Positions 11,840-30,668 of a DNA stretch of 64,000 nt are shown piece after piece. This DNA is from Candidatus Methylomirabilales bacterium (GTDB lineage Bacteria > Methylomirabilota > Methylomirabilia > Methylomirabilales > CSP1-5): positions 1,544 to 65,543 of the forward strand of contig JBHIAH010000006.1 of NCBI GenBank assembly GCA_046758505.1. The letters run 5' to 3'. Under the pieces are notes generated by a model. That model saw nothing but the letters and a program-made list of their open reading frames with translations, did no database searches and was not told the DNA's origin. A program made the position numbers and the translations under genes. Within the stretch, counting starts at the first letter, position 1, and every line of letters begins with the position of its first letter.

Positions 11840-11861
11840 CCGCGGAGCTCGGAGGGGGAAA

Positions 11862-13184: not shown

Positions 13185-13225
13185 CGAGCGAGCCCGCCAG
13201 CGAAGCGTCTCCCGCCCGAGGAGAG

Positions 13226-14479: not shown

Positions 14480-14496
14480 ACCAGGAGGGACCAACT

Positions 14497-15545: not shown

Positions 15546-15610
15546 TTTCTTGGCCGTTCGAGTCTACACATCACAAGGATCCTGGAGGGGTGCGGCAAAG
15601 GAGGAACGCC

Positions 15611-16675
15611 ATGAGGCATCGCATTGCGGTGATCCCGGGCGATGGGATCGGTAAGGAGGTGGTACCTGAAGGCATGCGCGTGCTCGAGGCCGCCGGGCGC
15701 CGATTCGGCTTTGACTTCGAGTGGACGACCTTCGACTGGAGCTGCGAGGTGTATGCGAAGACCGGTCGCATGATGCCCGAGGATGGGCTCGATCAGCTCC
15801 TAAACTTCGAGGCAATCTATCTCGGTGCGGTCGGCTTTCCCGGGGTGCCCGACCATGTCTCGCTGTGGGGACTACTCATCCCGATCCGGCGCGCGTTCCG
15901 CCAGTATATTAACCTCCGTCCGGTGCGGCTGTTGAAGGGCGTGCAGTCCCCCCTCGTCGGGCGCACGCCCCGGGACATCGACCTCGTGATCGTGCGCGAG
16001 AACAACGAGGGCGAGTATTCGGCGATCGGGGGCCGGCTGTATCATGGCACCGCCGAAGAGCTGGTGGTGCAGCAGTCGGTGTTTACGCGCCAGGGCTGCG
16101 ACCGCGTGATGCGCTACGCCTTCGAGCTTGCCATGGGCCGGCCGGCGCGGCATCTCACCTCGGCCACCAAATCGAACGGGATCATCCACAGCATGCCATA
16201 CTGGGATGAGCGGTTCGCCGCCATGGCGAGGAACTATCCAGCGATCACGACCGACCAGTACCACATCGACATCTTGGCCGCCCATTTCGTCCAGCATCCC
16301 GACTGGTTCGACGTGATCGTGGCCAGTAACCTCTTTGGGGATATCCTCTCCGACCTCGGCCCGGCGATCGCCGGCTCGATCGGGACGGCCCCCGGGGCCA
16401 ACATCAACCCGGAGAAGGACTACCCCTCGATGTTCGAGCCGGTGCACGGCTCGGCGCCGGACATCGCCGGGAAAGACCTCGCCAACCCGATCGGACAGAT
16501 CTGGTCGGGCGCTCTGATGCTCGATCACCTCGGACATCCCGAGGCGGCCCGAGCCATCGTAGCCGCGATCGAGAACGTCGTGGCGGAGGGGACGGTGCTT
16601 ACGCGCGACCTGGGGGGGAAGGCCGCGACCGCCGAGGTGGCCGAGGCGATCGCCACCAGGACGGCGGCCGGCTAA
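15611..16675 (+). CDS. tartrate dehydrogenase / D-malate dehydrogenase-like (isocitrate/isopropylmalate dehydrogenase family)
   Basis: Start taken at MRHRIAVIPGDGIGKEV. Also RENNEGEYS, NLFGDILSDL and EPVHGSAPDIAGK; overall closest in pattern to TtuC-type enzymes. Confidence 0.83.
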   Translation: MRHRIAVIPGDGIGKEVVPEGMRVLEAAGRRFGFDFEWTTFDWSCEVYAKTGRMMPEDGLDQLLNFEAIYLGAVGFPGVPDHVSLWGLLIPIRRAFRQYINLRPVRLLKGVQSPLVGRTPRDIDLVIVRENNEGEYSAIGGRLYHGTAEELVVQQSVFTRQGCDRVMRYAFELAMGRPARHLTSATKSNGIIHSMPYWDERFAAMARNYPAITTDQYHIDILAAHFVQHPDWFDVIVASNLFGDILSDLGPAIAGSIGTAPGANINPEKDYPSMFEPVHGSAPDIAGKDLANPIGQIWSGALMLDHLGHPEAARAIVAAIENVVAEGTVLTRDLGGKAATAEVAEAIATRTAAG

Positions 16676-16692
16676 TCGCAACCCCGAAGGCT

Positions 16693-16710
16693 TCGCAACC
16701 TCTATGCCAC
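16693..16710 (-). promoter_or_regulatory. orphan sigma-54-type -24/-12 motif at the left edge of the island, pointing antisense into the preceding gene
   Basis: Minus strand reads gTGGCATagaggTTGCga, matching the TGGCAC-N5-TTGCA spacing exactly. No ORF lies downstream on that strand. A degenerate copy (cGGCACaatgaTTTAC) is at 16776-16793. Confidence 0.35.
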
Positions 16711-16741
16711 AGGGGTGCGGAGAGGGATGGCGGGGTGGCGC

Positions 16742-16772
16742 GGAATGTCAAGATTCAAGACCCGACCCTAAC
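16742..16772 (+). repeat. family C repeat, partial copy (C3)
   Basis: ggaatgtcaagattcaagacccgaccctaac. It shares the aatgtcaAGATnCnAG..GACCCTA core with 21257-21315, 23198-23261 and, inverted, 23623-23650. Confidence 0.6.
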
Positions 16773-16833
16773 CCCCGTAAATCATTGTGCCGGAGGTGGG
16801 GCTAGCCGCCATGCCTCCCCCGGATGCTTTCCG

Positions 16834-17610
16834 TCAGAGCAAGATCCCCAAGATACGAATGACTAACCGTTGGCCCCTGGACCGTTCGCCCCTGGAGTTT
16901 GTCGCGCGTATTTTTTCCTGCGTACAGATCTCACGCGCGTTTGTTGCTGCATCGCCGGTAATCGAGACGCCAAAGTCGATCCCCTTAAGGTCGTCGACGG
17001 TGAAGGGCCGCTCGGGGCGCACTTGCCTGCTGTTGTAATACACGACGTCTTTTTCGGTGTCCACGAACAGATACAGCCACTCGCCCGATGGGAGGTAGGC
17101 CTCTTGCCTCATCGCACCGAACCCCGTGCCGAGAAGTAAGAGGTAGCGCCCATCCGTGGACCACAGCAGGCATTCTGATTCCGGCGGTCCCTCGTCCGGC
17201 GAGCGAAAAACATCTTTGTAATGAGTCGTTTCCCCGCGGTCGTTCGTCGTGAGGCGGACGACGAAGTGACGCTCGGCAAACGCAGGCACCTCCTGGACCT
17301 CAGCCACCACCCGACCATCCGGGGAGGGAGCCGACAGACTCACGTATACCTGGGTCCACGACGCGAGAACAATCGGCAAAAACAGGCTCATCACACTCGC
17401 CAGTGCGGCCAACACGATCTTGAGATACATGCGCGATGTGAAGAAACACCCGAGCAAGACGGCGGCCAGGACAATGATGAATGAAATGAGGCCATTGCCT
17501 CCGAAGTAAGCATTGGCGAACAGGGCCACTATGAGTATTGTGAAAACCCCAAGTTTCAGCGCGACGCGCCCCGATCGCCGATCCCCCGGTGTCTGCTGTG
17601 CGAGTTCCAC
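16834..17610 (-). CDS. hypothetical membrane protein (3 N-terminal TM helices plus a soluble C-terminal domain)
   Basis: 258 aa, GTG start. Hydrophobic helices in residues ~20-95. The C-terminal part contains SPDGR.. and WSTDGRYLLL, reminiscent of single beta-propeller blades. No family recognised. Confidence 0.55.
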   Translation of the reverse strand: MELAQQTPGDRRSGRVALKLGVFTILIVALFANAYFGGNGLISFIIVLAAVLLGCFFTSRMYLKIVLAALASVMSLFLPIVLASWTQVYVSLSAPSPDGRVVAEVQEVPAFAERHFVVRLTTNDRGETTHYKDVFRSPDEGPPESECLLWSTDGRYLLLLGTGFGAMRQEAYLPSGEWLYLFVDTEKDVVYYNSRQVRPERPFTVDDLKGIDFGVSITGDAATNAREICTQEKIRATNSRGERSRGQRLVIRILGILL

Positions 17611-17630
17611 TCCGCAGGTCCCTTCTTTTT

Positions 17631-17677
17631 CTTAAAAAAGCAAAACGCCTTGACGGCTCTCCTTCACCGTAAAGGCG
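17631..17677 (-). terminator. intrinsic-terminator-like hairpin plus U-tract (part of junction module A1)
   Basis: Minus strand reads CGCCUUUACGG-UGAAGGAGAG-CCGUCAAGGCG (11 bp stem, one mismatch) followed by UUUUGCUUUUUU. Confidence 0.55.
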
Positions 17678-17695
17678 CTGCAATCATTGTGCCGG
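17678..17695 (-). promoter_or_regulatory. sigma-54-type -24/-12 promoter motif upstream of 16834-17610
   Basis: Minus strand reads cCGGCACaatgaTTGCAg, with GG-N10-GC spacing identical to the TGGCAC-N5-TTGCA consensus. It lies about 70 nt upstream of the GTG start. Confidence 0.55.
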
Positions 17696-17734
17696 GGGTG
17701 GGCGAAGAGATCGGCGGGCCTTAAATTCAACTCC

Positions 17735-18433
17735 CTACAAGTGCAAATCGCAGTTTTGACAATGATTGAACGGCCTGGGAATCCACTCGAATAATACGTT
17801 ATCCAACTTCCACGGGTCGAGCATGTTGAAGTACTCCCCGCAGCGAGGACATTTGACGGAGCCCGTGAGACCCCCCAAAATCCCCAAGAGGCCGACATAG
17901 CAGAAGGCAAATACCTTACTCGTGGACGTGGACACTTGAGAGACCAGGATGACGGCGGGAAGAAACAAGAAAAATAACACCAGTGTTCCGATGTTCCGCC
18001 GCCGGATCCGCTGCAATACCCGCATCTCCTCGGCATTGGGTGGCTTGGTTTCGTGGATAAAGAACGCATCGGTCTCCCGCCCTTTGTATACCATGGGAAT
18101 TCTTACGGTTAAGAGGTCCTCGAACACACTCTGAAATTGTTCGTAAGACCAGCTGAGGTTTCTCTCCCTGGCCAATTGAGCATAGAGTTTTTCTCTCGGC
18201 ACGGTCAGGTCTTTGATATCCAGCAGATCGTTCGAGGCGATGTATGACGCGATCTCGAGACACTGGGGATCCGGAAGCCTGGTATCCGTGGCTTGCCAGC
18301 GGATATCTTGCGGCTCGTCGTCGTCAGGCCAACTGACATGCACCTCAACGACATCAAAGGTTTCTTTTGTAATTCTTACGGTCGGGCTATCGAACATCGC
18401 CAGAAACCCGCGCAAGAATTCTACTCGACGCAT
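17735..18433 (-). CDS. hypothetical protein: soluble N-domain, 2 TM helices, C-terminal zinc-ribbon (CPRC..CQNC)
   Basis: The track ORF begins at a TTG (18469). ATG 18433 (MRRVEFLRGF) is preferred. TM segments IGTLVLFFLFLPAVILV and FAFCYVGLLGILGGL, followed by CPRCGEYF..HCQNC. Confidence 0.5.
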   Translation of the reverse strand: MRRVEFLRGFLAMFDSPTVRITKETFDVVEVHVSWPDDDEPQDIRWQATDTRLPDPQCLEIASYIASNDLLDIKDLTVPREKLYAQLARERNLSWSYEQFQSVFEDLLTVRIPMVYKGRETDAFFIHETKPPNAEEMRVLQRIRRRNIGTLVLFFLFLPAVILVSQVSTSTSKVFAFCYVGLLGILGGLTGSVKCPRCGEYFNMLDPWKLDNVLFEWIPRPFNHCQNCDLHL

Positions 18434-18477
18434 AGATATAACTTCCCCACGTATCACAGAGCGAATCAAGCGAGCCT

Positions 18478-18519
18478 GAAAAGTAAAACGCCCTCACGGC
18501 CTCCTTCGCCGCAAAGGCG
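18478..18519 (-). terminator. intrinsic-terminator-like hairpin plus U-rich tract (junction module A2)
   Basis: Minus strand reads CGCCUUUGCGG-CGAAGGAGG-CCGUGAGGGCG, where every position pairs if G-U is allowed, followed by UUUUACUUUUC. It is homologous to 17631-17677. Confidence 0.5.
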
Positions 18520-18537
18520 CTGCAACCCTTATGCCAC
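18520..18537 (-). promoter_or_regulatory. sigma-54-type -24/-12 promoter motif upstream of 17735-18433
   Basis: Minus strand reads gTGGCATaagggTTGCAg, with exact consensus spacing. Confidence 0.55.
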
Positions 18538-18598
18538 GACTAGAGCACATCACAGGCCTGGCCCCGCCCCTCTTTGCCCAAGACGCGACCCATCGAAC

Positions 18599-18656
18599 AT
18601 CGGCGTTCGCCGGCACGCCTGAAGTGCGGCGCGCTCAATTGCCCTGCCCCCGAGCC
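18599..18656 (+). repeat. family F repeat, copy F1
   Basis: atcggcgttcgccggcacgcctgaagtgcggcgcgctcaattgccctgcccccgagcc. 54 of 58 positions are identical to 22089-22146 by hand alignment. It contains the dyad GCAC-N7-GTGC (18613-18627). Confidence 0.75.
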
Positions 18657-18692
18657 CCACTCGCAATCTAGGCATTAACCATAGACGCCCAC

Positions 18693-19169
18693 TTATCGGT
18701 GGCAGTATTTACAGATGAGTTCTTCGTACTGTTTAATAATTTCTCCGTCGATCGCAATAACTCGGTCTTCTACCAAGGGGTAAAGTTCACCAGTCTGAGC
18801 AAACCGTTCAACTGTCGAGATAGAGAAGTGAGGCTCGTACGGCCTTACGATAATTAAGCGTGCTTCGGGCCAATACTTTGCTGCCCTGGTGCCCCACTCT
18901 TTGAGAGATTCGGCCAATCCGTTTCCTGATCGAAACTTGACCTCGACGAAAGAGACATCCCCATTTTTCATCACAATAAAATCAGGCATCGTGCGGATCT
19001 TCTCGGCCTCGATATCCCCCTTGTTCATCCGGGGGAGGCCTCGTTGCACGAGGCTCTGGAGAATCCCCTCGTAGCCGAAGCGGTAGACAAAGTAACCGCC
19101 ATCCTGGAGCATCTCGCTCACGATCGTCTCGGCCATTCGTCCCCGGAGGAGGCTTTCGGGAAACTTCAC
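18693..19169 (-). CDS. PD-(D/E)xK nuclease-fold protein (restriction-endonuclease-like), function unknown
   Basis: PDFIVMKNGDVSFVEVKFR is a D..(E)VK motif in the expected beta-strand context. The first ~17 codons of the track ORF (to 19256) are the sigma-54-like repeat itself. GTG 19169 follows GAGGA; ATG 19136 is an alternative start. Confidence 0.5.
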   Translation of the reverse strand: MKFPESLLRGRMAETIVSEMLQDGGYFVYRFGYEGILQSLVQRGLPRMNKGDIEAEKIRTMPDFIVMKNGDVSFVEVKFRSGNGLAESLKEWGTRAAKYWPEARLIIVRPYEPHFSISTVERFAQTGELYPLVEDRVIAIDGEIIKQYEELICKYCHR

Positions 19170-19231
19170 GGTCGAATCCTCATTTAAGTGCCCACAAAGG
19201 GCATACCATCCTTCCGTCAGGGGAGAAAGGA

Positions 19232-19249
19232 CTGCAACTCTTATGCCGT
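19232..19249 (-). promoter_or_regulatory. sigma-54-type -24/-12 promoter motif upstream of the PD-(D/E)xK gene
   Basis: Minus strand reads aCGGCATaagagTTGCAg, with exact spacing. It lies about 65 nt upstream of GTG 19169. Confidence 0.55.
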
Positions 19250-19566
19250 AGGGCACCTGGGAGCCATCTGGCGCGCACCGTCCTCAGGGCGGGCGGCTCG
19301 GGCTACCAGAATAAAGGCCGTAACCTATTGATATGAGGGTGATCAGCCGCAGGGCAGGCTTTTAGGAGGGTTGGCTGAAAGTCTGCGGGTGAAAGCAGTA
19401 TGCCCGTCCACCACAAAGCCGTATCCGCGCCGTCCTTTGCCAAAATGGCCCTTGAATCCTCGGCGTGCGGTCGATGGTGCGGGAAGGGGTAAAGGGGGAT
19501 CCTGGGGTGGCGCGCAATATCAGGATGCGCGGCCTGACCCTACAACCAGTCATGTTCGTGGCAATG

Positions 19567-20679
19567 TCAGCCAGAACTTGCTTCCACCATGCAAACTGCC
19601 TGGCGAAGCCTCTTGATTGCTTCCTCGCGGCCAACAGCAACGGACTGCACGGTGGGCGCGTCGAACAGGAGGCGTGCGTAATCTGCGTTTATAGCCCAGC
19701 TTACGTCCGGTGGCGCTCCCTTCGGGATGGACCGGAAACCCTGCAAAGCGGCAGCTGAATCTATGATGCCAACAACTTCTCCTAGTTCATTTACAATTGG
19801 ACCGCCAGAGTAATCTGCCTGAATTGGGACTGAAATTTGTAGGACGGACGCCTCACCTTTAGGTCCAGAAAGTGCGCTGATGACCCCCTCCAATGATCTT
19901 GCTTCTTCACCGAGGTGGTCCGTACCAGGATAACTCACCGTGAAAACACGCTCACCCAGGCGGGCAGATCCTGTCGACACTAAAGGGAGGAACTGTGGCG
20001 TGCGAGGACCAATTTGCAGAACCGCAAGATCGTTCCCGGCGTTATACGTTTGGACCTTGGCGTTTGTGACTGTTCCGTCAGCCAAGTGAACTTGTATGGA
20101 CTTCGCGCCCTGGACAACGTGGTAGGTCGTTAGCAGGATCCCATTCCCACGCACCGCAAAGCAAGTCCCACGAATGTTTTGATCTCTTTTATCTTTTGGC
20201 TCCACCTTTGGAATCTCAGGAGTAGCCTGTGCGCTTGCAACTGATTCCTCCTCTACATCTTCCTCTGCGTCTTTTGGTGGTGCGGGAACCGGCGCCTGAT
20301 TGATGGCAAGGATGCGATCGTCGGGACCATAGATGATGGTGATCCGGTGCTTATCGGCTTGGGAAGCCTCGATGGGTGTGCCAGCGACCTCCCAAATACC
20401 CAGGGTCAGAACATCCAACACAGCGTGCCCGGCAGCACGTCCCGCACTTGGCTCGTTGCCTAGCTCATACTCGTAGATGTCGGTTCGCCCACCATCCGGG
20501 GTCGTCACGGAGGAGACGGGACTGCCCAGTTGCAACTCCGCCTCCCCGCGGGTTGAGCCCACGCGTAACGCGCCCAAATTTGGTTCCCTTTTACCACTCA
20601 TCGCCATACCGACAGAACATGCTGTTAGCGATGAAAGGAGGAACACACCTGCCAACAAAGCAGTTAGCTGCTTTATCAT
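19567..20679 (-). CDS. lipoprotein with C-terminal trypsin-like (S1/HtrA-type, no PDZ) serine protease domain
   Basis: Start taken at MIKQLTALLAGVFLLSSLTAC (lipobox LTAC), not the upstream track start 20796. Catalytic triad context: TTYHVV, NDLAVLQI, DYSGGPIV. Confidence 0.75.
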   Translation of the reverse strand: MIKQLTALLAGVFLLSSLTACSVGMAMSGKREPNLGALRVGSTRGEAELQLGSPVSSVTTPDGGRTDIYEYELGNEPSAGRAAGHAVLDVLTLGIWEVAGTPIEASQADKHRITIIYGPDDRILAINQAPVPAPPKDAEEDVEEESVASAQATPEIPKVEPKDKRDQNIRGTCFAVRGNGILLTTYHVVQGAKSIQVHLADGTVTNAKVQTYNAGNDLAVLQIGPRTPQFLPLVSTGSARLGERVFTVSYPGTDHLGEEARSLEGVISALSGPKGEASVLQISVPIQADYSGGPIVNELGEVVGIIDSAAALQGFRSIPKGAPPDVSWAINADYARLLFDAPTVQSVAVGREEAIKRLRQAVCMVEASSG

Positions 20680-20805
20680 AATCAAACCCCCTCGTGGTTT
20701 CCCTTTCAACTTCAGAAATCTATGCGACCTCACTTTGCCATCAGATCCTGTAAAACAGGACACAAAAAATGCATTCTGCTGGACTGTGCCAAGCAATAAA
20801 GGCTA

Positions 20806-20823
20806 GTGCAATGATCGTGCCGA
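20806..20823 (-). promoter_or_regulatory. sigma-54-type -24/-12 promoter motif upstream of the protease gene
   Basis: Minus strand reads tCGGCACgatcaTTGCAc, the best match to TGGCAC-N5-TTGCA in the window. It lies about 130 nt upstream of ATG 20679. The flanking sequence is unrelated to the other copies. Confidence 0.6.
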
Positions 20824-21256
20824 AGATAGCTGGAAGCTATCACGGCCCTTACTTCAGCAACACTGCCATGGGACTCGGCTAAAACCGGAAAGCTGCCTCT
20901 TTCGGATAGGGATCATGTTCGAGGTAAAACTTCGGGAAGCTGGGTGTGAAACGGTGTGCATAAGATCATAAGATAAAAAAGGAGAGGGCTGCACCGAGAG
21001 CCGGGACGCCTGTCGAGCCGGAGCGTGCCGGAAAATAAGTTTGGCTGTGTGGTGGGCGGTCGAGTGGGCCCGAAGGGGGCGAGGGACTATGCCTGCCCCT
21101 TCTTCTTTCTGGGGGATTTCAGTTGGCCCCGGGGGACCGGTGTGCCGGGGGCTCGGGGCAACCGCACCCTCCAGATCTTCTTACGTGGCTTCTGGAGCTT
21201 TCCCACGAGAGCGATACGCCCCTCTCCGCCGGCCCGAGGAGGCTGCGCCAACCGCG

Positions 21257-21315
21257 CATCAGACCCGCGGCCGCTCGCCGCATTCCAAGTGCAATGTCAG
21301 GATTCAGGACCCTAC
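21257..21315 (+). repeat. family C repeat, copy C1 (just downstream of brnA)
   Basis: catcagacccgcggccgctcgccgcattccaagtgcaatgtcaggattcaggaccctac. About 42 of the first 50 positions match 23198-23261. Confidence 0.7.
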
Positions 21316-21332
21316 ACTAGAGCTACGGCCGG

Positions 21333-21560
21333 TCACGCCACAGTCTTCCAGTTCATCTCCAGGCGCTTCCCAGTGGCCGCGCAATCCCGAAGGTATAGGT
21401 TAATGAGCGTCTGATACGGGATCCCACACTCCTCCGAGATCGACTTGAAGTACTTGATCGTCTGCTCGTCGAGTCGGATGGTGACCTGCCGCTTGAGGCG
21501 GCTCGCGTAGGGGTTCCGCCGTGCCTTCGAAAAGTCGTATTCTTTCTTCATGTGTGCCAC
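21333..21560 (-). CDS. brnA: BrnA-type antitoxin (ribbon-helix-helix)
   Basis: 75 aa. KKEYDFSKARRNPYA..VTIRLDEQTIKYFK is characteristic of BrnA. It overlaps brnT by 13 nt. Confidence 0.8.
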   Translation of the reverse strand: MAHMKKEYDFSKARRNPYASRLKRQVTIRLDEQTIKYFKSISEECGIPYQTLINLYLRDCAATGKRLEMNWKTVA

Positions 21561-21844
21561 CTTTGATTGTAGATGTCCCGTTCCCTGCGGGTCGCCTTGC
21601 GTGCGGAGATGATCTGGATCACCCCCTGGTCCTCCCGGTAGGCATGAGCCACCACAAGGATGCGCAGCTTCGCACTGAGCCCAAGAAGGATGAACCGGTC
21701 TTCCGCGGTTGCGTGCTCGGGGTCGTCGATCAATAACGCGTGCTCGTCCGCGAAGACCGTCTCTGCCTCGGCAAACGGTACTCGGTGCTTCCGCCTGTTC
21801 TGCGAGTCCTTCTTGGGATCCCAGGCGAACCGCAGATCAGACAT
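21548..21844 (-). CDS. brnT: BrnT-type toxin (DUF497 ribonuclease)
   Basis: 98 aa. FAWDPKKDSQNRRKHRVPFAEAETVF..RFILLG..RILVVAH..IISARKATRRE is the canonical BrnT pattern. Confidence 0.85.
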   Translation of the reverse strand: MSDLRFAWDPKKDSQNRRKHRVPFAEAETVFADEHALLIDDPEHATAEDRFILLGLSAKLRILVVAHAYREDQGVIQIISARKATRRERDIYNQRWHT

Positions 21845-21850
21845 ACTTAC

Positions 21851-21879
21851 ATCATAACTACGAAGTAGGGTCTTGTCAA
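21851..21879 (-). promoter_or_regulatory. sigma-70 promoter of brnTA giving a leaderless mRNA
   Basis: Minus strand reads TTGACA (21879-21874), a 17 nt spacer, TATGAT (21856-21851), then 6 nt and ATG (21844). The -35 box is embedded in a short inverted family C core (gtagggtcttgtcaag, 21865-21880). Confidence 0.65.
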
Positions 21880-22088
21880 GATATCTCTCGTGTGCGCCTA
21901 ACGCTAACGCCGAGCCGCCGCTGTTGAGCGAGCGGTCTGAACCAACCCTGCCCCTTCCCGCACTACGGCCATCTGAAGCGTCCGCAGAATATCAAAATAT
22001 CAACGTCAGACCCTCATGCGAGCATACGCCCGATAGTTTCGGAATTCCGAAAACGTGGGGGAAATGGGAAATGGCCAGCCTCGACTCT

Positions 22089-22146
22089 ATCGGCGTTCGC
22101 CGGCACCCCTGAAGTGCGGCGTACTGAATTGCCCTGCCCCCGAGCC
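22089..22146 (+). repeat. family F repeat, copy F2
   Basis: atcggcgttcgccggcacccctgaagtgcggcgtactgaattgccctgcccccgagcc, 54/58 identical to F1. The adjoining cctgaccccgcccctc block (22184-22205) also occurs next to F1 (18556-18580), but on the other side. Confidence 0.75.
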
Positions 22147-22245
22147 TCGACCAATCCAATTACAAATAGCAAACCGCCGGCCTGACCCCGCCCCTCCACT
22201 GCAACACGATCCTCAGTATGCTCGACGGGAAGAGGGGTGGCCATC

Positions 22246-22296
22246 ACCCGGTCCGCAGCGGCTGATGAAGAGAGCCGATGCAATTGACAATTGTAG
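22246..22296 (+). repeat. family E repeat, copy E1, abutting the truncated HEPN gene
   Basis: cagcggctgatgaagagagccgatgcaattgacaattgtagactcgacccc, 45/51 identical to 23128-23178. It contains the CAATTG-A-CAATTG double palindrome and a CGGCT..AGCCG hairpin. Confidence 0.75.
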
Positions 22297-22306
22297 ACTC
22301 GACCCC

Positions 22307-22519
22307 TTATTCGCCCTCATGGGTTCTCGGGAACGGGACGGCTAGCAGGGTTAATAGCCCCTTGAGATATTTTTCGGCGCACTGCTGGGCGTGAAAACAC
22401 ACCGTGCCTAGGGGGCATCTCGCGCGGAGGGTTAATGTATGCTCGGCAGTGGTGAGATCTTCCTCAGCCTTCTCGACCCATTGGCGAACCACCCGAAGCG
22501 TCTCAGGCGACACGCTCAT
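22307..22519 (-). pseudogene. HEPN-domain toxin, 3'-truncated (about half length)
   Basis: 70 aa. WVEKAEEDLTTAEHTL..FHAQQCAEKYLKGLL..FPRTH then EGE-stop. HEPN partners of MNT are usually about 120-140 aa and continue after the (R)xxxxH motif. The reading frame ends 8-10 nt from repeat E1. Confidence 0.65.
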
Positions 22520-22835
22520 ACAACACCTCGCCCTCGCGCAGGGCAGGATAGATGATCGTCCCGACAGTATCGCGGTATCGCTCGACCTCCTCAGGGGTGA
22601 CCACGATCACGTCCTTCGGGAACCCGACGCCCGCGAGGGCGAGATCGATCTCGACGGCGGTCTGGCGCTTAGAGCCGGAAACGCGCATCACTACCAGCAG
22701 GTCGGCGTCGCTGTCCGGCCCACCCGTCCCGCGAGCCTGCGACCCGAACAGGATGATCTTTTCCGGATCGAAGCGGTCCACGATCCGTCGCACCATCTCC
22801 CCGATGATCTGCTGTCTCCAGTCTCCGTCGTCCAC
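22503..22835 (-). CDS. MNT-type nucleotidyltransferase antitoxin (pairs with HEPN)
   Basis: 110 aa, GTG start. ILFGSQARGTGGPDSDADLLVV is the GS-x10-DxD pol-beta NTase motif. It overlaps the HEPN ORF by 17 nt. Confidence 0.85.
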   Translation of the reverse strand: MDDGDWRQQIIGEMVRRIVDRFDPEKIILFGSQARGTGGPDSDADLLVVMRVSGSKRQTAVEIDLALAGVGFPKDVIVVTPEEVERYRDTVGTIIYPALREGEVLYERVA

Positions 22836-23127
22836 GGCCTTTTCCGATCACAGCCTTCGCTAACTGCTACGGCTGCCAGGGCCAGCCAGCCCTTTCTCTC
22901 GCTCACGGTAGCATGATACACAACACCGCTAGACTTGACGAGCCCTTCCTGCCAGAGACCGGGAGACGTGCCAGGCGAGGACTGCACGGGGTAGCGTGTC
23001 GGCAGGGCGCACGTGCGGGGCCCGCCCCAGGTACATGGAGTCGAGCTGGAGGGCGACGACGGGCATGGCGTCCCACCGGCCCGGCCGGCTGGCGGCAGCC
23101 AGTGCGAGGGACATTCAGCCAACACCC

Positions 23128-23178
23128 GAGCGGCTGATGAAGAAAGCCGAAGCAATTGACAATTGTAGACCTCACCCC
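23128..23178 (+). repeat. family E repeat, copy E2
   Basis: gagcggctgatgaagaaagccgaagcaattgacaattgtagacctcacccc. Confidence 0.75.
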
Positions 23179-23197
23179 ATCCCTCAAATTTCTACAG

Positions 23198-23261
23198 CAT
23201 CAGGCCCGCTGCCGCTCGCCGCATTCCGATGGCAATGTCAAGATCCTAGGCCCGACCCTAC
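23198..23261 (+). repeat. family C repeat, copy C2
   Basis: catcaggcccgctgccgctcgccgcattccgatggcaatgtcaagatcctaggcccgaccctac. Confidence 0.7.
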
Positions 23262-23285
23262 GACCTTATACTCCGATCCGTGACA

Positions 23286-23618
23286 CTATTCAGGTGCGAA
23301 AAAATCCTCATCGATGCCGAGAAGTGATAAACGACGCCTTGAAACACCTATGTTATTCTCAATCATTAGCTCGACAATACGCTGTCCGTCGATAAGCATA
23401 ATGGGGACTGCCCCACGTTTGAATCCCACCTGTTTTGCCTCCGCGGTAAAGGACGACGTCGTAATGAATATTCCTTGGTCGAAGTCCCCAGTAATTGCAC
23501 CCCGAAACTTATCGATTTCTGGGCGAGAAATCGTCGTTTGTTGCCACCGCTTGCTTTGGAAAGCCGCATTAATGTTCAAAATGCCTTGCCGGAGCTTACC
23601 ATGACCGTCGATCCGACT
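23286..23618 (-). pseudogene. Mrr-type restriction endonuclease, C-terminal catalytic-domain fragment only
   Basis: The open frame from 23618 reads SRIDGHGKLRQGILNINAAFQSKRWQQTTISRPEIDKFRGAI..GIFITTSSFTAEA..IMLIDGQRIVELMIENNIGV. This matches the Mrr_cat pattern (IDG.., QxKRW, FITTS.F, LIDG..L..LM). A TGA lies immediately upstream at 23619-23621, inside the family C4 repeat. The N-terminal winged-helix half is missing. Confidence 0.7.
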
Positions 23619-23622
23619 TCAT

Positions 23623-23650
23623 GTAGGGTCAGGTCTTGAATCTTGAATTT
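23623..23650 (-). repeat. family C repeat core, inverted copy C4
   Basis: Plus strand gtagggtcaggtcttgaatcttgaattt is the reverse complement of aaattcaagattcaagacctgaccctac. It forms an inverted pair with C2 around the Mrr fragment. Confidence 0.65.
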
Positions 23651-23853
23651 TCCCCATCCCCGCGTTCACCCGACCAGGACCCAAGTATCTTGACGCCCGA
23701 TTCTCGCCCCCCCAAAACACAAAGCACCGGGGAGCCTGTGGGGCCCGCCCGGCGCTTTGCCCTTGTCAAAATCTCCCCTGCCTACATCCTCATCCATCCG
23801 GCCCGTCCCTGGATAGTTGAGGGTCGAGAGCGGAGCGTTGAGTGTCAATTACC

Positions 23854-24084
23854 TCACAAGACTTCAAATTCCTCTGGACTCAACGCTGCCTGTCGCAGAA
23901 TGCTCCGCGGGGTGCCAACGGCTACCTCGCGATGCCGCGGCACGATGGCGGTGCGGATACCCACGGCCATCTGCTTGACAAACTTGACATGGCTGCCCTT
24001 CTGCCCTACTTCCGCAAAGCCCGCTGCTTCCAACCTACGCTTCACTTCACGGTAAGGCAGCGGGCTAAGCGGCACTGACTTCAA
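23854..24084 (-). CDS. hicA: HicA-family mRNA interferase toxin
   Basis: 76 aa. REVKRRLEAAGF..QKGSHVKF..IVPRH.EV..GT..SILRQA is the YcfA/HicA pattern. Confidence 0.85.
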   Translation of the reverse strand: MKSVPLSPLPYREVKRRLEAAGFAEVGQKGSHVKFVKQMAVGIRTAIVPRHREVAVGTPRSILRQAALSPEEFEVL

Positions 24085-24271
24085 TCTCGACCCGCCGCAT
24101 TTGCGGGGTCAGCGTCGCACGCGGTTCCTCGAAGTGCAATTCCAATGCCTCACGGAGGTTCGCCAACGCCTGGTCTTCGGTCTCCCCTTGGCTGGCGATA
24201 TCGATCTCCAGGCACTGCGCCACAAACCAGTCGCGTTCGCGTAATATGCTTGCGGTAAACGTCTGCTTCAT
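24065..24271 (-). CDS. hicB: HicB-like antitoxin (UPF0150 fold, no DNA-binding extension)
   Basis: 68 aa. FTASILRERDWFVAQCLEIDIASQGETEDQALANLREALELHFE. It overlaps hicA by 20 nt. Confidence 0.75.
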   Translation of the reverse strand: MKQTFTASILRERDWFVAQCLEIDIASQGETEDQALANLREALELHFEEPRATLTPQMRRVEIEVSAA

Positions 24272-24507
24272 TCTCGGCTTTCCTGCCTATCGGCTGCGGC
24301 GGTGAGAGGCCACGGAGTGAGTGTGGAGCGCGACACCATTCGTCGGCAATCCAGCCCGTCCCCGTATCCCCCTAAACCATGATGCGCGAATAGGCTATCA
24401 AGGCGAGGGGTCAAGTCTGCCCTTGACTCATCTCCGTTCCAATGCCTTCAAGTCAGACCTGCTCATCAAGCGGCTTTCGTCCGAGGAAGTAGCTCCTTGG
24501 GTATGTA

Positions 24508-24741
24508 TCATAGCTCCTCTAATATTCGGTGATAGTCTTCGATGCTTCGGCCCATGTCTCGGAGGATCTTACGAAGCAGCGGCCGCACAATAACCTGCGA
24601 GCCGTGATCGGGGATGACCACGATCCGTCCTTCGGCATTGCGGAACACGTTGTGGCTGCCCTCCCGCCGGACCCAATGAAAGCCTACTGCCTCAGCCATC
24701 TTACTCAATTGTCGATAGGCGACGAGGCGTAGCTTTGTCAC
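24508..24741 (-). CDS. hicA: HicA-family toxin (second copy)
   Basis: 77 aa. YRQLSKMAEAVGFHWVRREGSHNVFRN..GRIVVIPDHGSQ. Confidence 0.85.
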   Translation of the reverse strand: MTKLRLVAYRQLSKMAEAVGFHWVRREGSHNVFRNAEGRIVVIPDHGSQVIVRPLLRKILRDMGRSIEDYHRILEEL

Positions 24742-24956
24742 GCTGGGACCTCGACCCTCCAGGTCCCCACGAAGTCAGGTAGGGGCTCATCAGGTGAGGT
24801 TGTTTTCAGGTAGGCCTGAATTGCTTCGCGAATATTTTCTTCGAGCGCTGGCAGATCAGGGGCCTGGGTGTAACACCCTGGTAGCTCCACCACTTCCCCC
24901 ACCAGCCACTGGCTTTCGGGGTCCCGTTCCACCACTATCGTAAACGACCGTTTCAT
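24738..24956 (-). CDS. hicB: HicB-like antitoxin (second copy)
   Basis: 72 aa. FTIVVERDPESQWLVGEVVELPGCYTQAPDLPALEENIREAIQAYL. 4 nt overlap with hicA. Confidence 0.8.
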   Translation of the reverse strand: MKRSFTIVVERDPESQWLVGEVVELPGCYTQAPDLPALEENIREAIQAYLKTTSPDEPLPDFVGTWRVEVPA

Positions 24957-24987
24957 CCTAAGCTCCCTGCGCGAGCGATCCAGGCCA

Positions 24988-25015
24988 ATTATACGTGCTT
25001 AGTGTTGATCGGCAA
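24988..25015 (-). promoter_or_regulatory. sigma-70 promoter of the second hicBA pair
   Basis: Minus strand reads TTGCCG (25015-25010), a 16 nt spacer, then a perfect TATAAT (24993-24988). RBS AGGGAG lies 6 nt before ATG 24956. Confidence 0.6.
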
Positions 25016-25138
25016 AACCCAAAAGCGCCGGGGAATCGCCCTTCCTTACGCCACCTAAACCACGATGCCCGCTACTCTATTCCCTCGGATGCCCCCATGT
25101 CAATAGAGAGTGGCGGGGGAACGGCTGACCGCTGACAG

Positions 25139-25336
25139 CTATTCGGTGTCTTCCTCGATATGCTCGTAAATCACCGTCCCACAAGTGGGGCACCGGTCGG
25201 TGAAGCAGATCAGGACCTCGGGATCGTACTTCGCATGCGCAGAATAGTACCCCCGTGTCACCTCCGTGCGTTCCACCTCGGTTCCGCCGCATGTCGGACA
25301 CCGGGTTAAGTCACGCTCGGGCCTCTGCTCCATCAT
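25139..25336 (-). CDS. small zinc-ribbon protein (two CPTCG knuckles)
   Basis: 65 aa with CPTCGG..x35..CPTCG. The start overlaps the stop of the upstream ORF by 4 nt. Confidence 0.5.
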   Translation of the reverse strand: MMEQRPERDLTRCPTCGGTEVERTEVTRGYYSAHAKYDPEVLICFTDRCPTCGTVIYEHIEEDTE

Positions 25337-25818
25337 GCCTCCCCGTCCACCTCAGCGCTGCCCCCCCTGACCGTCTCCACCCACGCCCGCGGCAGCTGCG
25401 ATTTGAGCCCGGCCGCCCCGTAGAGCGCACAGCCCAGCATTTTCCCCTCGTAGCGGACCGCCACGTACCCTCCCTCCACCAGAAAGGGACCAGCGAGAAT
25501 CTCACCGCGGAGGAAAGGGTTAAGTTGCTCTGCGGTCAGGTCGACCACATTCTTGGCGATGGCGTCTCCGAGGAAAAGCAGGGCGGCCGTCGTGGGCTTC
25601 CAGAGGCTCCTCCGTTTCCGAAGAAACGGCAAGCCGGCCGCCTCGACCTTCAGCAAGGCAAGGGCTTCCTCGACCCCCATCAGGTCTGCCATCGCCCAGA
25701 CGTTCTTCCCCCGCACCAGAAACCGGAGCCCCTTCAGGGCGGAAAAGGGGACACCGAACCGCCCGTGCCAAAATTCGAGAATTGCCTGCTGGTCACTCGG
25801 GCTTACGGAGACAAGCAA
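25333..25818 (-). CDS. RsmF-type C-terminal (PUA-like) domain encoded as a separate ORF
   Basis: 161 aa, TTG start. GYVAVRYEGKMLGCALYGAAGLKSQLPRAW resembles the C-terminal tail of E. coli RsmF/YebU (V..F.....GLAK..GSRLKNSYPR). It overlaps the methyltransferase ORF by 26 nt in another frame. Confidence 0.55.
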   Translation of the reverse strand: MLVSVSPSDQQAILEFWHGRFGVPFSALKGLRFLVRGKNVWAMADLMGVEEALALLKVEAAGLPFLRKRRSLWKPTTAALLFLGDAIAKNVVDLTAEQLNPFLRGEILAGPFLVEGGYVAVRYEGKMLGCALYGAAGLKSQLPRAWVETVRGGSAEVDGEA

Positions 25819-26695
25819 TGAAGAACCCCCACGAATCGACGAGGTGCGGATAGCACCGGGCCGCCCGGCTCAGGGAGGGGTGAAACCGCTGCCCGTTCCA
25901 CTCTGCGAGGCCCGACGCACACGGGACCGGAAGATGCACGGGGACGAGCTCGGCCTGCCCCTCCTCAACGACCGGCTGAAGCACCGCCTCGTTCTCCTCC
26001 GGGGCGTAGGTACACGTAGAATAAACCAGGATCCCGCCGGGCCGGAGCACCCTCAGCGCGTGACGCAAAAGCATCTGCTGTAGCCGCTGCAGGCGGCGGC
26101 TGACCTGGGGGTCCTCGGTCAATGGCGGCCGGGCCCCGATCCGATAGGTTCCCTCGGCCGAGCAGGGCGGATCGAGGAGGATCCGATCGAAGAGGACCCG
26201 CGTTGGAAAGCTCTGCCCCCGATACCGCGTCACAACGATGCTGGTGATCCCGAGGCGATCCGTGTGAGACCGGAGGATGCCGATCCGCCGGTGGTTCACA
26301 TCGTTGGCAACGATCAGGGCGCGGCCGTGCGTGAGCTGGGCCAGATAGGTCGCCTTCCCCCCCGGTGCGGCACACAGGTCGAGCACTCGTTCCCCCACCT
26401 GCGGACCGAGGACCACGGGCGGAAGCATCGACGTCAGGCCTTGGATTTGGTACCATCCGCGAAAGTACTCGAGCGTGCCGCCGGGCGTTCCCGAGCTCTC
26501 CCACCGGAACGCCTCTGGAATCCCCGCCACCGGTGCAAGCAAGTAACCCCTGTCCGCCATCGTACGGCAAAAGGTGTCCCGCGCGATTCGCAGCGTGTTG
26601 ACCCGCAGGTGGGTCGGCGGCTCGACCTCTACGGCGTCCAGGAACACGGCAAAGTCGGGAACGATGTCGCGATACCGCGCAAAGGCCGGCACCAT
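25793..26695 (-). CDS. rsmF: NOL1/NOP2/Sun-family RNA cytosine-C5 methyltransferase domain (RsmB/RsmF-like)
   Basis: 300 aa with DLCAAPGGKATYLAQL (SAM motif I), DRILLDPPCSAEGTYR (motif IV PC) and LVYSTCTYAPEENE (motif VI TC). Confidence 0.85.
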   Translation of the reverse strand: MVPAFARYRDIVPDFAVFLDAVEVEPPTHLRVNTLRIARDTFCRTMADRGYLLAPVAGIPEAFRWESSGTPGGTLEYFRGWYQIQGLTSMLPPVVLGPQVGERVLDLCAAPGGKATYLAQLTHGRALIVANDVNHRRIGILRSHTDRLGITSIVVTRYRGQSFPTRVLFDRILLDPPCSAEGTYRIGARPPLTEDPQVSRRLQRLQQMLLRHALRVLRPGGILVYSTCTYAPEENEAVLQPVVEEGQAELVPVHLPVPCASGLAEWNGQRFHPSLSRAARCYPHLVDSWGFFIACLRKPE

Positions 26696-28596: not shown

Positions 28597-28688
28597 CGAT
28601 TCGACGACCGATGACCCACGACCGATGACCGCAAAAAACCACGAACCTGCTTGTTCTTCAGTCGTTGGTCAACGGTCATCGGTCGGCC
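28597..28688. repeat. family G short repeats as an inverted pair between the nucleoside hydrolase and DUF488 genes
   Basis: cgaccgatgacccacgaccgatgaccg (28603-28631) and cggtcatcggtcg (28674-28686). gaccgatgaccg and cggtcatcggtc are exact complements. Confidence 0.6.
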
Positions 28689-29131: not shown

Positions 29132-29539
29132 GGCTCCGCTCCCCCCGCCCGTATCCTGCTCGACCCCAGACTCCGCACCTCCGTACGGCCATCTTAGCGA
29201 AGCCCCGCTGACGCTGCCAACCCCTTTTTCGGTGCATGGCCGTTGTACATCCCCCGTTCACGAAGCCTCACCACAGTCCGACCATTCCATCAGCAGCACG
29301 ATCAGGACGAAGAGACGCGTGCGGGGGGTTGACGGTCACTCCCCGCCTGAACACCGGATTGCCTGTCGGAATGTGAGGGTTTCCGGAGAGGGAAGATCAG
29401 GACTGCTATGCCAGATGCCCAGTGGGGCGAGCGGCGAAGGCCTCGATCGCCTATCCGTCAAGAGATGACGGCCAGGAGCGCGAGGGCGAGTAGCGTGCCA
29501 TCAAGCTCCTCGTGCGGTAGGCTAGGCTTCTGATGCCCT

Positions 29540-30604: not shown

Positions 30605-30668
30605 CTCGTGGAGCCTTCATCACCGTTGCGGGCAGACAGACGTACGGCTCGAGAACAAAACGAGAGAA

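Follow-up and report, generated by a model that had tools for sequence, protein, structure and literature searches.

The window analysed here is a 64-kb stretch of DNA from a Methylomirabilales (NC10) bacterium, and the island within it (16676-25138) lies between a ttuC-like gene and an rsmF-PUA-zinc-ribbon (Znr) operon. As the first-pass annotation had it, every plausible gene in the island is on the minus strand and the spacers are long (124-647 bp), the non-coding share being 36%. The toxin-antitoxin and restriction genes that it had named (brnTA, MNT with a truncated HEPN, an Mrr fragment and two hicBA pairs) are backed by Pfam, PADLOC and NCBIfam. Nearest the operon is the hicB2 (24738-24956)/hicA2 (24508-24741) pair, with HicA_toxin at E 1.6e-12 and HicB2 scoring 22 bits against HicB_lk, under the cut-off; a promoter scan placed its sigma-70-like promoters at 25103-25074 and 25015-24988 in spacer S1. 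The hicB1-like (24065-24271)/hicA1 (23854-24084) pair follows (HicA_toxin E 7e-15; HicB1 matches DUF7387 at 36.6 bits), and each HicA toxin has a small antitoxin upstream. The Mrr-type restriction endonuclease (23286-23579) is a C-terminal fragment of 97 aa which covers positions 50-115 of 115 in Pfam Mrr_cat and 225-317 of 317 in mREase_IV. MNT (22503-22835; NTP_transf_2 E 1e-11) is joined to a HEPN (22307-22519) cut to 70 aa, with profile positions 1-54 of 117, and the same scan gave a sigma-70-like promoter at 22941-22913. The last pair is brnT (21548-21844)/brnA (21333-21560), with BrnT_toxin at E 1e-26, BrnA_antitoxin at E 1e-8 and a strong scanned sigma-70-like promoter at 21879-21851 (11/12 positions matched). 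The earlier suggestion of decay is supported by the truncated HEPN and by the reduction of Mrr to a fragment.

The reading as a defence/toxin-antitoxin island applies to one half only. The other half is neither toxin-antitoxin nor defence and consists of four monocistronic units with sigma-54-like boxes, encoding a lipoprotein protease, an Hjc-like nuclease-fold protein and two membrane proteins. To call these four orphan genes was an overstatement. The lipoprotein-type trypsin-like serine protease (19567-20685) matches Trypsin_2 at E 2e-24 and, weakly, HtrA/MarP-type proteins; with its start set at ATG 20685, the translation reads as a signal peptide ending in cysteine. The product of orf3 (18693-19169; 158 aa, start revised to GTG 19169) has 383 cluster-level homologues, whose alignments begin at residues 1-8, and a PDF...EVK motif that is almost invariant in the family. 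It is predicted to have a PD-(D/E)xK nuclease fold of Hjc-like type, as the top Foldseek matches of its AlphaFold2 model (pLDDT 91) are Hjc resolvases (E 7e-4, probability 1.0). The orf2 product (17735-18433; 232 aa from ATG 18433) is a membrane protein with a C-terminal zinc ribbon and has nine homologues in NC10 genomes at 53-85% identity; orf2 is an NC10 lineage gene. Only orf1 (16834-17610), a predicted membrane protein of 258 aa, has no family match in Pfam, NCBIfam or PADLOC.

A Methylomirabilales MAG has a protein 100% identical to the window RsmF, and eight NC10 contigs with RsmF 75-78% identical were compared. Their gene order is nuh, rbsK, rsmF, PUA, Znr, nothing or a PrmA-like gene, convergent qor, purM, purE, purD, purH and purN, and all these genes are kept in the window. 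The island region is missing at the Znr-qor junction in all eight, where Znr is followed by qor directly or past one PrmA-like methyltransferase gene (167-217 aa), so that the junction itself is variable; in the window, about 9.7 kb separates Znr (25148) from qor (14497-15468). The region is thus shown to be an insertion relative to these NC10 relatives, and its accessory nature is supported. Homology to the relatives extends no further than the stop codon of the zinc-ribbon gene on one side and some 45 nt beyond the qor stop on the other, and therefore the ttuC-like gene (15590-16675, plus strand; Iso_dh family, E 3e-88) lies inside a non-syntenic block of about 15.5-25.1 kb. This gene is not between Znr and qor in the relatives, and its best homologues are from Rokubacteria MAGs (84%). 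The left border drawn at first therefore stands as a gene border but not as a synteny border.

The GC content of the island is 57.0%, against 61.1% in the rest of the window and 63.6% in the syntenic core, 6.6 points higher. Only 2.6% of equal-length windows have a lower GC, but the tetranucleotide distance is not extreme, as 9% of windows are equally distant, and the composition deviates only moderately. The lower GC first seen by eye is borne out by these values, but other parts of the 64-kb window are equally GC-poor.

The absence of mobility genes was described correctly. No tRNA or tmRNA was found in the island, no Rfam family was matched there, and no integrase or transposase domain was detected, six-frame translations of the large spacers included. 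The repeat search found no flanking direct repeats, and no RAYT gene or detectable remnant is present within the 64-kb window. The claim that a mobility signature is lacking holds for genes but not for sequence, because the main repeat of the spacers is a transposon end. The repeated modules reported earlier are real and, by self-BLAST of the window, confined to the island, but they are not anonymous: one (module A) corresponds to a RAYT end and another (module T) contains a sigma-54-type box.

By sequence matching, module A is identified as the 27-nt end repeat of a RAYT-type (IS200-like) Y1-transposase element family. An exact-pattern scan found it at 12 metagenomic loci. At L081, L084, L088 and L101-L105, inverted A copies spaced by about 910-940 bp flank a gene for a protein of 282-291 aa. 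This protein scores above the NCBIfam REP_Tyr_transpos cut-off of 80 (96 and 91 bits) and also passes Pfam Y1_Tnp, its family has more than 8000 members, Methylomirabilales among them, and the host contigs of the A-flanked genes range from 38 to 59% GC. The window holds five significant nhmmer matches to module A (E 4e-10 to 4e-3) and three variant or degenerate A-type ends, all within the island; the core GGGTCRGGYC occurs seven times against 1.8 expected, with 5/7 in the island. Forward copies begin 0-63 nt past the preceding stop codon (Fisher p 6e-5). The position of A-type ends at unit boundaries could be a passive outcome of insertion into the only tolerated sites, the 3′ intergenic DNA.

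The best copy, with one mismatch to the metagenomic consensus, is at 16741-16772 (minus strand, E 4e-10). On the same strand, the copy at 19514-19545 (E 7.6e-7) begins 23 nt beyond the protease stop, and that at 21256-21319 (E 0.004), which has a 4-nt internal deletion, begins 17 nt beyond the brnA stop. The latter is 81% identical to the copy at 23197-23262 (minus, E 1.3e-7), where module A with a 64-nt extension (D1) begins 23 nt beyond the Mrr stop. The sole inverted copy, also recovered by the repeat search (23622-23652, plus, E 4e-9), lies 44 nt upstream of the Mrr ORF with its terminus facing the fragment. Together with a degenerate forward A-like end read by eye at about 23850, it may tentatively bound a MITE-like element of about 230 bp filling spacer S3. 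D3 (GGGGTGAGGTCTACAATTGTCAATTG..., minus, 23129-23178), whose likeness to the A core was read from the sequences, is a variant A-type end; D3-like variants are also present in L106 (3092-3112) and in L109. It is 90% identical to a second copy at 22257-22306 (minus), which begins at the base following the premature HEPN stop, that is, at the truncation point. The Mrr fragment is bracketed by two A-type ends, and such ends coincide with the truncation points of both HEPN and Mrr. From the Mrr fragment onward, a solo end (module A or D3) follows nearly every unit; no clear A copy accompanies the two hicAB units closest to the operon.

Module T lies upstream of orf1, orf2 and orf3 and carries a putative sigma-54-type promoter box, an assignment based on position and on the nine-base motif GGCAY-N5-TTGC, whose spacing is that of a sigma-54 -24/-12 promoter. 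The motif is seen seven times against 1.07 expected, and its five minus-strand copies all lie either ahead of a gene start or at the edge of the island. All modules of this kind are on the minus strand. T3 (19200-19247) combines the box (19234-19247) with a hairpin upstream of orf3, T2 (18479-18537) has the box (18522-18535), a 14-bp hairpin and a T-run upstream of orf2, and T1 (17636-17693) has the box (17680-17693), a hairpin and a T-run upstream of orf1. The protease gene has the bare box without the module (GGCACGATCATTGC, 20808-20821, minus), about 120 nt upstream of its ATG. T4 (16682-16710; box 16695-16708) has no downstream gene; it is directed, in antisense orientation, into the 3′ end of the ttuC-like gene and probably represents a unit cut short where the island ends.

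In nucleotide alignments, the orf2 unit is found at other loci in relatives, with breakpoints within module T. At 89% identity, it matches units of L106 and L107, there between Rce1-like and abhydrolase genes, and equally 89% identical to those of L109 and L110, there in a Grx-CpXC-orf2-g158 array; the homology begins or ends inside module T, T2 being conserved upstream of the homologues in L106 and L107 and the L109 homology ending just past the T1 box. A degenerate A-type end (A′, 17716-17738, minus), recognised from the alignment, overlaps the orf2 stop codon, and in L106 and L107 a clearer copy lies 12 nt past that stop (L106 4776-4802, nhmmer E 0.004). Non-coding module E (21099-21243, minus) likewise has counterparts, at 75-80% identity, in the intergenic DNA of NC10 relatives (L106 2244-2370, L107 877-1021), and its predicted hairpins have one compensatory pair only. 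The presence of at least this one unit elsewhere in relatives means that some of the island is reshuffled NC10 DNA rather than foreign cargo.

The reading that we favour, with rather better than even confidence, is that of an accessory islet built up at a permissive junction and littered with solo RAYT-type transposon ends. The islet would have accumulated where the rsmF-PUA-zinc-ribbon operon and qor, both conserved, converge, as a series of small self-contained units. One half would comprise type II toxin-antitoxin modules (two hicAB-like pairs, brnTA and a broken MNT-HEPN), each with its own predicted sigma-70-like promoter, together with the Mrr fragment, and the other half four monocistronic genes, all with a putative sigma-54-type -24/-12 box ahead of them. 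The units may have been gathered by repeated insertion or recombination at the Znr-qor spot, the A and T repeats (27-60 nt, 75-95% identical) possibly serving as targets or portable homology for cassette reshuffling, and element insertions with later deletions would account for the gene decay. On the whole, the original observation is partly confirmed and its interpretation partly supported. For the proposed hotspot accreting cassettes by an unknown route, the variability of the junction in relatives is in favour and the route is narrowed, but accumulation itself is something we infer.

This kind of region, a toxin-antitoxin/accessory islet at a permissive hotspot, is already known. Islets of toxin-antitoxin genes that occupy permissive spots, lack mobile-element genes and show erosion of their toxins have been documented (PMC13617665). 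The island resembles them in its clustering of several type II modules between conserved genes, in its lack of an integrase or transposase gene, in its absence from relatives with one toxin truncated, and in the variability of the same junction in relatives. It differs in that half of its content is made up of single genes, four in all, that have sigma-54-like boxes, and in its unusually long spacers, which hold identifiable transposon-end repeats and a shared promoter module. REP/REPIN/BIME repeats go with RAYT tyrosine transposases (PMC3116915, PMC5581495). Module A shares with these its inverted flanking of RAYT-type genes and its short extragenic copies, and with BIMEs its mosaic clusters with other modules. 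However, it has no significant hairpin (z about 0), unlike classical REPs, its core is conserved across hosts of widely differing GC, unlike species-specific REPs, its associated protein has 281-291 aa and a C-terminal helix-turn-helix domain, and its window copies are limited to one 8.5-kb islet.

Among the alternatives, it is conceivable but unlikely that the A-bounded units are themselves mobile, as non-autonomous RAYT derivatives of about 0.9-1.0 kb in which cargo replaces the transposase, mobilised in trans by a RAYT encoded elsewhere in the genome and piled head-to-tail. Successive module starts are 955, 987, 891, 919 and 967 bp apart, plus one interval of 1772 bp, close to a RAYT element of about 935 bp; gene and spacer lengths are anticorrelated (r = -0.96), and lengths this uniform arise in just 4/120 permutations, but n is 5 and the permutation p is 0.03. 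In L092/L082, two direct A copies at a distance of 925 bp enclose a DUF4258/zinc-ribbon toxin-antitoxin cassette within a HEPN/MNT array, and the orf2 unit retains an A copy at a different locus; nevertheless, its breakpoints are in T and not at A. The co-orientation of 7/8 A-type ends is a bias of p = 0.07. Moreover, each unit has one end, with the single inverted copy in S3, whereas complete elements have two inverted ends, and no excision or insertion polymorphism was observed. No such cargo is known for IS200/IS605-type Y1 transposases in RAYT systems.

That the block is ancestral NC10 DNA, a sigma-54 regulon with toxin-antitoxin genes lost in the sampled relatives and with repeats acting as promoter, terminator and activator sites, is quite unlikely. 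It is consistent with orf2, T, module E and D3-like sequences being common to NC10 relatives and with T combining sigma-54 promoter spacing with a terminator-like hairpin. Against it, the block is absent at the junction in 8/8 relatives, where the shared modules are at other loci, and the GC is well under that of the syntenic core. Furthermore, module A flanks Y1-transposase genes in hosts of very different GC, unlike a host-specific regulatory site, and the truncation points of two genes fall precisely at A-type ends. A degraded prophage, integrative element or plasmid-integration remnant with its mobility genes deleted would also fit the lower GC, the toxin-antitoxin and restriction fragments and the gene decay. 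We consider it very unlikely, as no phage, conjugation, integrase or replication domain was found in the genes or six-frame spacers of the island, tRNA genes and flanking direct repeats are missing there, module A has no match in viral contigs, and the region is a mosaic of units of differing affinities, native NC10 genes included.

Integron cassette arrays without an integrase (CALINs), in which same-strand genes are separated by attC sites, are common in bacterial genomes, and the small co-oriented toxin-antitoxin and unknown-function genes, the repeat after each unit and the lack of a nearby integrase recall them, but such an array is highly improbable and largely ruled out, because a pattern scan cruder than the IntegronFinder covariance model found 0 RYYYAAC...GTTRRRY pairs with complementary ends 50-150 nt apart on either strand of the island, the spacers have no attC-sized imperfect palindrome, the units have their own promoters, and the repeat that follows the stop codons instead matches the end of a Y1-transposase element.

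In Neisseria minimal mobile elements, conserved genes flank variable cassettes and a dedicated mobility gene is lacking; NIME/Correia-type repeats are intergenic mosaics that can carry promoters and act as recombination substrates. The island is like the former in its cassettes between conserved genes without a mobility gene and like the latter in its mosaic intergenic repeats, but it belongs to a different phylum and its repeat sequences are unrelated. The mosaic also includes module B, a 58-nt sequence on the minus strand at 22089-22146 which is 93% identical to a copy at 18599-18656, 37 nt past the orf3 stop.

The island (window positions 16676-25138) lies between a gene resembling ttuC (15590-16675, plus strand) and a unit made of rsmF, a PUA-domain gene and a zinc-ribbon gene. 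The ttuC-like gene was tried as an anchor for synteny, and its 80 best relatives (at most 84% identity, from Rokubacteria and others) had no neighbours in common with the window, so homologues of RsmF were used instead. Exact protein records of the ttuC-like protein, with either possible start, were not found. A Candidatus Methylomirabilales MAG encodes, on a 74.5-kb contig, a protein with 100% identity to the RsmF-like protein, whose counterparts in other NC10 bacteria have 75-79% identity to it. A conserved order is present in eight NC10 contigs and consists of nucleoside hydrolase, ribokinase, rsmF, the PUA-domain gene and the zinc-ribbon gene (62-64 aa), followed by a convergent qor and then purM, purE, purD, purH and purN. 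The window holds all these genes, with 72-90% protein identity. In the relatives, the gap between the zinc-ribbon gene and qor is 98 bp in one contig (L094) and is otherwise occupied by a PrmA-like methyltransferase of 167-217 aa. In the window, by contrast, about 9.7 kb separates the zinc-ribbon gene (25148-25327) from qor (14497-15468), and nucleotide homology to the relatives is limited by the stop codon of the zinc-ribbon gene on one side and by a point about 45 nt past the qor stop on the other. This comparison of gene order indicates that the island is missing from the relatives, among which the junction is variable too. None of the island repeat modules A, B, T and D3 is found in the syntenic loci of the eight relatives. 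The first-pass annotation had drawn the island between the ttuC-like gene and the rsmF unit. Its zinc-ribbon side coincides with the end of homology and the island is absent from all eight contigs, but the ttuC-like gene falls within the non-syntenic block and is not part of the conserved flank.

Every credible gene of the island is on the minus strand, as had been proposed. Domain assignments by Pfam, PADLOC and NCBIfam give, from right to left, hicB2/hicA2 (24956-24508), hicB1-like/hicA1 (24271-23854), a 97-aa C-terminal fragment of Mrr (23579-23286), MNT with a HEPN gene cut to 70 aa (22835-22307), brnT/brnA (21844-21333) and a lipoprotein-type trypsin-like protease (20685-19567); orf3 (19169-18693, revised start), orf2 (18433-17735) and orf1 (17610-16834) follow. 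The Mrr fragment corresponds to the last 66 positions of Mrr_cat and to residues 225-317 of a 317-residue type IV enzyme model, and the HEPN match covers profile positions 1-54 of 117. Integrase, transposase, phage and conjugation domains are absent from the island genes and from six-frame translations of the five largest spacers. No tRNA or tmRNA is present in the island, and Rfam gave no match at the gathering threshold in the whole window and none even at E≤5 in the island. The earlier statement that integrase, transposase and tRNA are lacking is thereby confirmed, and the marks of a classical integrative island (integrase gene, tRNA/tmRNA target, flanking direct repeats) were not found here. 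Toxin-antitoxin (TA) modules stand between conserved core genes and are absent from related genomes, which is the arrangement that characterizes a TA islet or genomic spot. Islets of this type without mobile-element genes, eroding over time, are a documented pattern (PMC13617665), and the present islet fits it. As first described, the region is a normal feature of bacterial chromosomes, namely, a TA/accessory islet, with any mobility gene lost, at a permissive junction.

Composition supports the accessory status without deciding it, since GC is low and the tetranucleotide distance is ordinary. The island has 57.0% GC, as compared to 61.1% in the rest of the window and 63.6% in the genes that are in synteny with the relatives; GC this low is found in only 2.6% of windows of equal length elsewhere, all of them at 54.5-64 kb. 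The lower GC seen by eye at first reading is thus borne out. In tetranucleotide profile, 9% of windows are equally distant. Spacers of 124-647 bp make up 36% of the island.

Self-comparison of the 64-kb window revealed repeat families confined to the island. The most frequent repeat is module A, TAGGGTCGGGTCTTGAATCTTGACATT, whose exact degenerate pattern occurs at 12 loci in metagenome contigs and at none in viral contigs. In three of these loci (L081, L084, and L088), a single 291-aa gene is enclosed by two inverted A copies about 910-935 bp apart. The encoded protein passes the NCBIfam "REP-associated tyrosine transposase" (RAYT) model (96 and 91 bits, cut-off 80) and has a Pfam Y1_Tnp match and a C-terminal helix-turn-helix domain. 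Inverted A flanks likewise surround a RAYT-type gene in L101 (NC10-type, 59% GC) and in L102-L105 (38%-54% GC). The right-hand A repeat codes for the last codons of the protein (..SRFKT*), and in the left-hand one TTGACA precedes the start codon by about 30-40 nt. With more than 8000 proteins at E≤1e-20, including a Methylomirabilales "transposase," this is a very large family, and many members are on contigs of about 0.9-1.3 kb, as expected for multicopy elements that break assemblies. The end-repeat core GGGTCARGTCTTG of this family of 281-291 aa proteins is kept in contigs of 38-59% GC (the eight loci named here). The end sequence of this RAYT-type family is conserved across very different hosts, and it adjoins TA cassettes in at least two unrelated lineages. 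Module A resembles the REP/REPIN-RAYT system in that it flanks, in inverted orientation, the gene of a RAYT (Y1 HUH transposase). Unlike classical REPs, of which a hairpin is a defining feature, it has no significant one: the DNA folds of seven copies were no better than shuffles (z -1.05 to +0.31), and the reading of module A as a REP hairpin was rejected.

REP/REPIN-RAYT systems have many extragenic copies dispersed over the genome; the 64-kb window, the part of this genome covered by the repeat analysis, contains 5-8 copies of A, all within the island. A profile of A ends finds five significant copies (E 4e-10 to 4e-3), and the 10-nt core occurs seven times in the window versus 1.8 expected, with five of the seven in the island. 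D3 (50 nt, two copies) is a sequence variant of the A end, and a degenerate A copy overlaps the orf2 stop codon. The family HMM, run against the six-frame translation, detected neither a RAYT gene nor a remnant of one in the window, and Pfam on the six-frame translations of the long spacers S3-S7 gave no decayed RAYT. Short ORFs after A and D3 bear a weak likeness, seen by eye, to the RAYT N-terminus (MATPLPVEH..., DRTPRIQ...), which is not claimed as homology.

Forward A copies start 0-63 nt past the stop of the gene before them (combined Fisher p 6e-5), D3 starts at the base directly after the premature HEPN stop codon, and the Mrr fragment is bracketed by two termini turned towards it (23622-23652, plus strand, and 23232-23262, minus strand). 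These positions fit insertions of the element, or recombination at its ends, as the cause of the HEPN and Mrr truncations.

Another repeat is module T. When its four window copies are aligned with two from relatives, a box, GGCAY-N5-TTGC, is invariant and the hairpin after it varies. Promoters of the sigma-54 -24/-12 type (consensus TGGCAC-N5-TTGCW, with GG at -24 and GC at -12) have this spacing. The box occurs seven times in the window versus 1.07 expected, and five of the seven fall on the island's minus strand. Four of these are 45-130 nt upstream of the starts of orf1, orf2, orf3, and the protease gene, the last with a bare box and no T module, and the fifth is at the island edge. Motif and position together point to T as a putative sigma-54-type promoter. 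T does carry a genuine hairpin and T-run, and a simple terminator or attenuator was also considered. A promoter is the preferred reading, since it is the box that does not vary and transcription would be expected to start within the hairpin. A dif/pdif-like Xer site was rejected, since the left half resembles a XerC arm but no XerD arm can be read. The repeats, anonymous in the first-pass annotation, can be named as a RAYT-type element end (A) and a sigma-54-like box (T). The edge box (16695-16708, minus strand, in module 16682-16710), which probably remains from a lost unit, has no gene downstream; transcription from it would enter the ttuC-like gene at its 3′ end, in antisense direction.

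TA units have sigma-70-like promoters (11 of 12 positions in brnTA) and the other units sigma-54-like boxes, from which two halves with different regulatory logic are predicted in the island. The long spacers of the sigma-54 half may be partly due to the need for upstream activator sites. Spacer S5 contains, at 22037-22052, a perfect 16-nt palindrome, TTTCGGAATTCCGAAA, about 160 nt upstream of the brnTA promoter.

Some units have homologues elsewhere in NC10. For orf2, nine homologues were found (53-85% identity), all apparently from NC10. In L106, L107, and L108, the unit formed by T box and hairpin, orf2, and an A copy 12 nt past the stop is 89% identical in nucleotides to that of the window and lies between Rce1-like and abhydrolase genes; the T box marks the precise start of homology, which stops after A. 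In L109 and L110, the orf2 homologue belongs to a co-oriented array (glutaredoxin, CpXC, orf2, a 158-aa gene, and an 81-aa gene) that also has more sigma-54-like boxes and a single A copy. Its homology with the window spans orf2 and the next spacer and ends just past the TTGC of the following T box, beyond which the downstream genes differ. As the homology of the orf2 unit starts or stops at or in T, the rearrangement junctions are placed inside this module. NC10 genomes appear to contain a group of small genes that have sigma-54-like boxes; the order of these genes varies between genomes, and their junctions fall inside the promoter module. The array (L109 264-3768, and L110) is an NC10-type group of small genes, the last two of which encode a 158-aa and an 81-aa membrane protein; sigma-54-like boxes stand before three of them, and some of these boxes have T-like flanks cut at different points.

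The D3-like A variant and module E are also common to the orf2-homologue loci of relatives. Module E (127-145 nt) is found in spacer S6 of the window (21099-21243, minus strand), at 2244-2370 of L106 and at 877-1021 of L107, with 75-80% identity; in the NC10 relatives, it is intergenic and adjoins a PF0610-like gene. Several hairpins are predicted in it, but with a single compensatory pair and a positive covariation term. It may be a small RNA or a regulatory region. As to orf3, it has 383 cluster-level homologues with a nearly invariant PDF...EVK motif. Its single-sequence model is poor (pLDDT 46), and the multiple-alignment model (pLDDT 91) was used, whose best structural matches are Hjc-type PD-(D/E)xK nucleases. 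In the family libraries (Pfam, NCBIfam, and PADLOC), orf1 alone lacks a match. Four orphan genes had been counted at first; this description may still suit orf1, but not orf2 with its NC10 homologues, orf3 with its nuclease-fold match or the protease with its Trypsin_2 domain.

According to the best-supported reading, a permissive junction of two convergent genes carries an accessory islet that was assembled from small autonomous units. Part of them would be native NC10 genes located elsewhere in relatives, and the islet, now decaying, is strewn with solo RAYT-type element ends. The route by which the units arrive is inferred: A and T could have served as insertion targets or as short portable homology. 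The proposal of a decaying TA region, or of a hotspot filled by an unspecified route, is in part retained, since it is a TA islet without a mobility gene in which HEPN and Mrr are truncated; with the repeats named, the unspecified route becomes two testable ones, RAYT mobilization in trans or recombination at shared A and T modules.

A more ambitious possibility is that A-bounded units are themselves mobilized as RAYT-sized cassettes. Modules start at 23261, 22306, 21319, 19547, 18656, 17737, and 16770, at successive distances of 955, 987, 1772, 891, 919, and 967 bp; five of six units thus measure 891-987 bp, a regularity equalled in 4 of 120 permutations, and shorter genes have longer spacers (r = -0.96). 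The RAYT element, of about 935 bp, is near these lengths, an agreement that may be a coincidence. Further support is given by the orf2 unit, which keeps its A copy at another locus, and by an unrelated AT-rich metagenomic contig, in which two direct A copies with a spacing of 925 bp flank a DUF4258/zinc-ribbon TA cassette (L092 4770-5721, with the same sequence present in L082). This cassette is within a HEPN/MNT array among sugar-biosynthesis genes, where the spacers are mosaics of further shared segments. However, the mobilization of A-bounded units is considered improbable, because only one end is present per unit, the statistical support is slight, and polymorphism was not observed. A wider idea is that NC10 cassettes of about 0.9-1.0 kb would be set by portable junctions, A (RAYT-element end) at the 3′ side and T (sigma-54 promoter/terminator) at the 5′ side, and would be reshuffled between loci and stacked into arrays by RAYT acting in trans on single-stranded DNA or by recombination at the modules. 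This too is considered improbable. If true, it would be an integron-like gene accretion that relies on a Y1 transposase and not on a tyrosine recombinase; a causal link from element ends to cassette boundaries would be a new mode of cassette accretion, which is unlikely on present evidence.

An integron, or a cassette array without integrase (CALIN), was rejected. Integron cassettes are co-oriented and mostly promoterless; co-orientation is present in the island, but the TA units have sigma-70-like promoters and others sigma-54-like boxes. A hand-written pattern scan, cruder than the model of IntegronFinder, found no attC R''/R' pair (RYYYAAC / GTTRRRY, 50-150 nt) on either strand of the island, whose spacers also lack inverted repeats of attC size. 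The sole attC-like end boxes of the window (45358-45467, GCCTAAC...GTTGGGC, 110 nt apart) lie outside the island, fold no better than shuffles (z -0.76) and are taken as chance. A prophage or integrative-element remnant has no positive evidence in its favor.

Other features of the window were recorded beside the accessory islet. Two further blocks are missing in the syntenic relatives, and neither carries any island repeat: 7.2 kb between purM and qor (7278-14496, 65.6% GC), which includes an ABC-type substrate-binding protein, and 3.1 kb between nucleoside hydrolase and an abhydrolase gene (28643-31786, 56.9% GC), with DUF488, a metallophosphoesterase-like membrane protein and a CPBP-type protease. 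The GC-poor end of the window has a direct repeat of 43 nt (62614-62656 and 63861-63903), whose copies are 88% identical and unrelated to the island modules. Finally, the RsmF-like methyltransferase (300 aa) and the PUA-domain C-terminal part (161 aa) are encoded by separate overlapping ORFs (25333-26695). The same division occurs in most NC10 relatives (in L094, the calls are 100 nt apart, 300 and 119 aa), and it looks like a conserved split and not a frameshift error.
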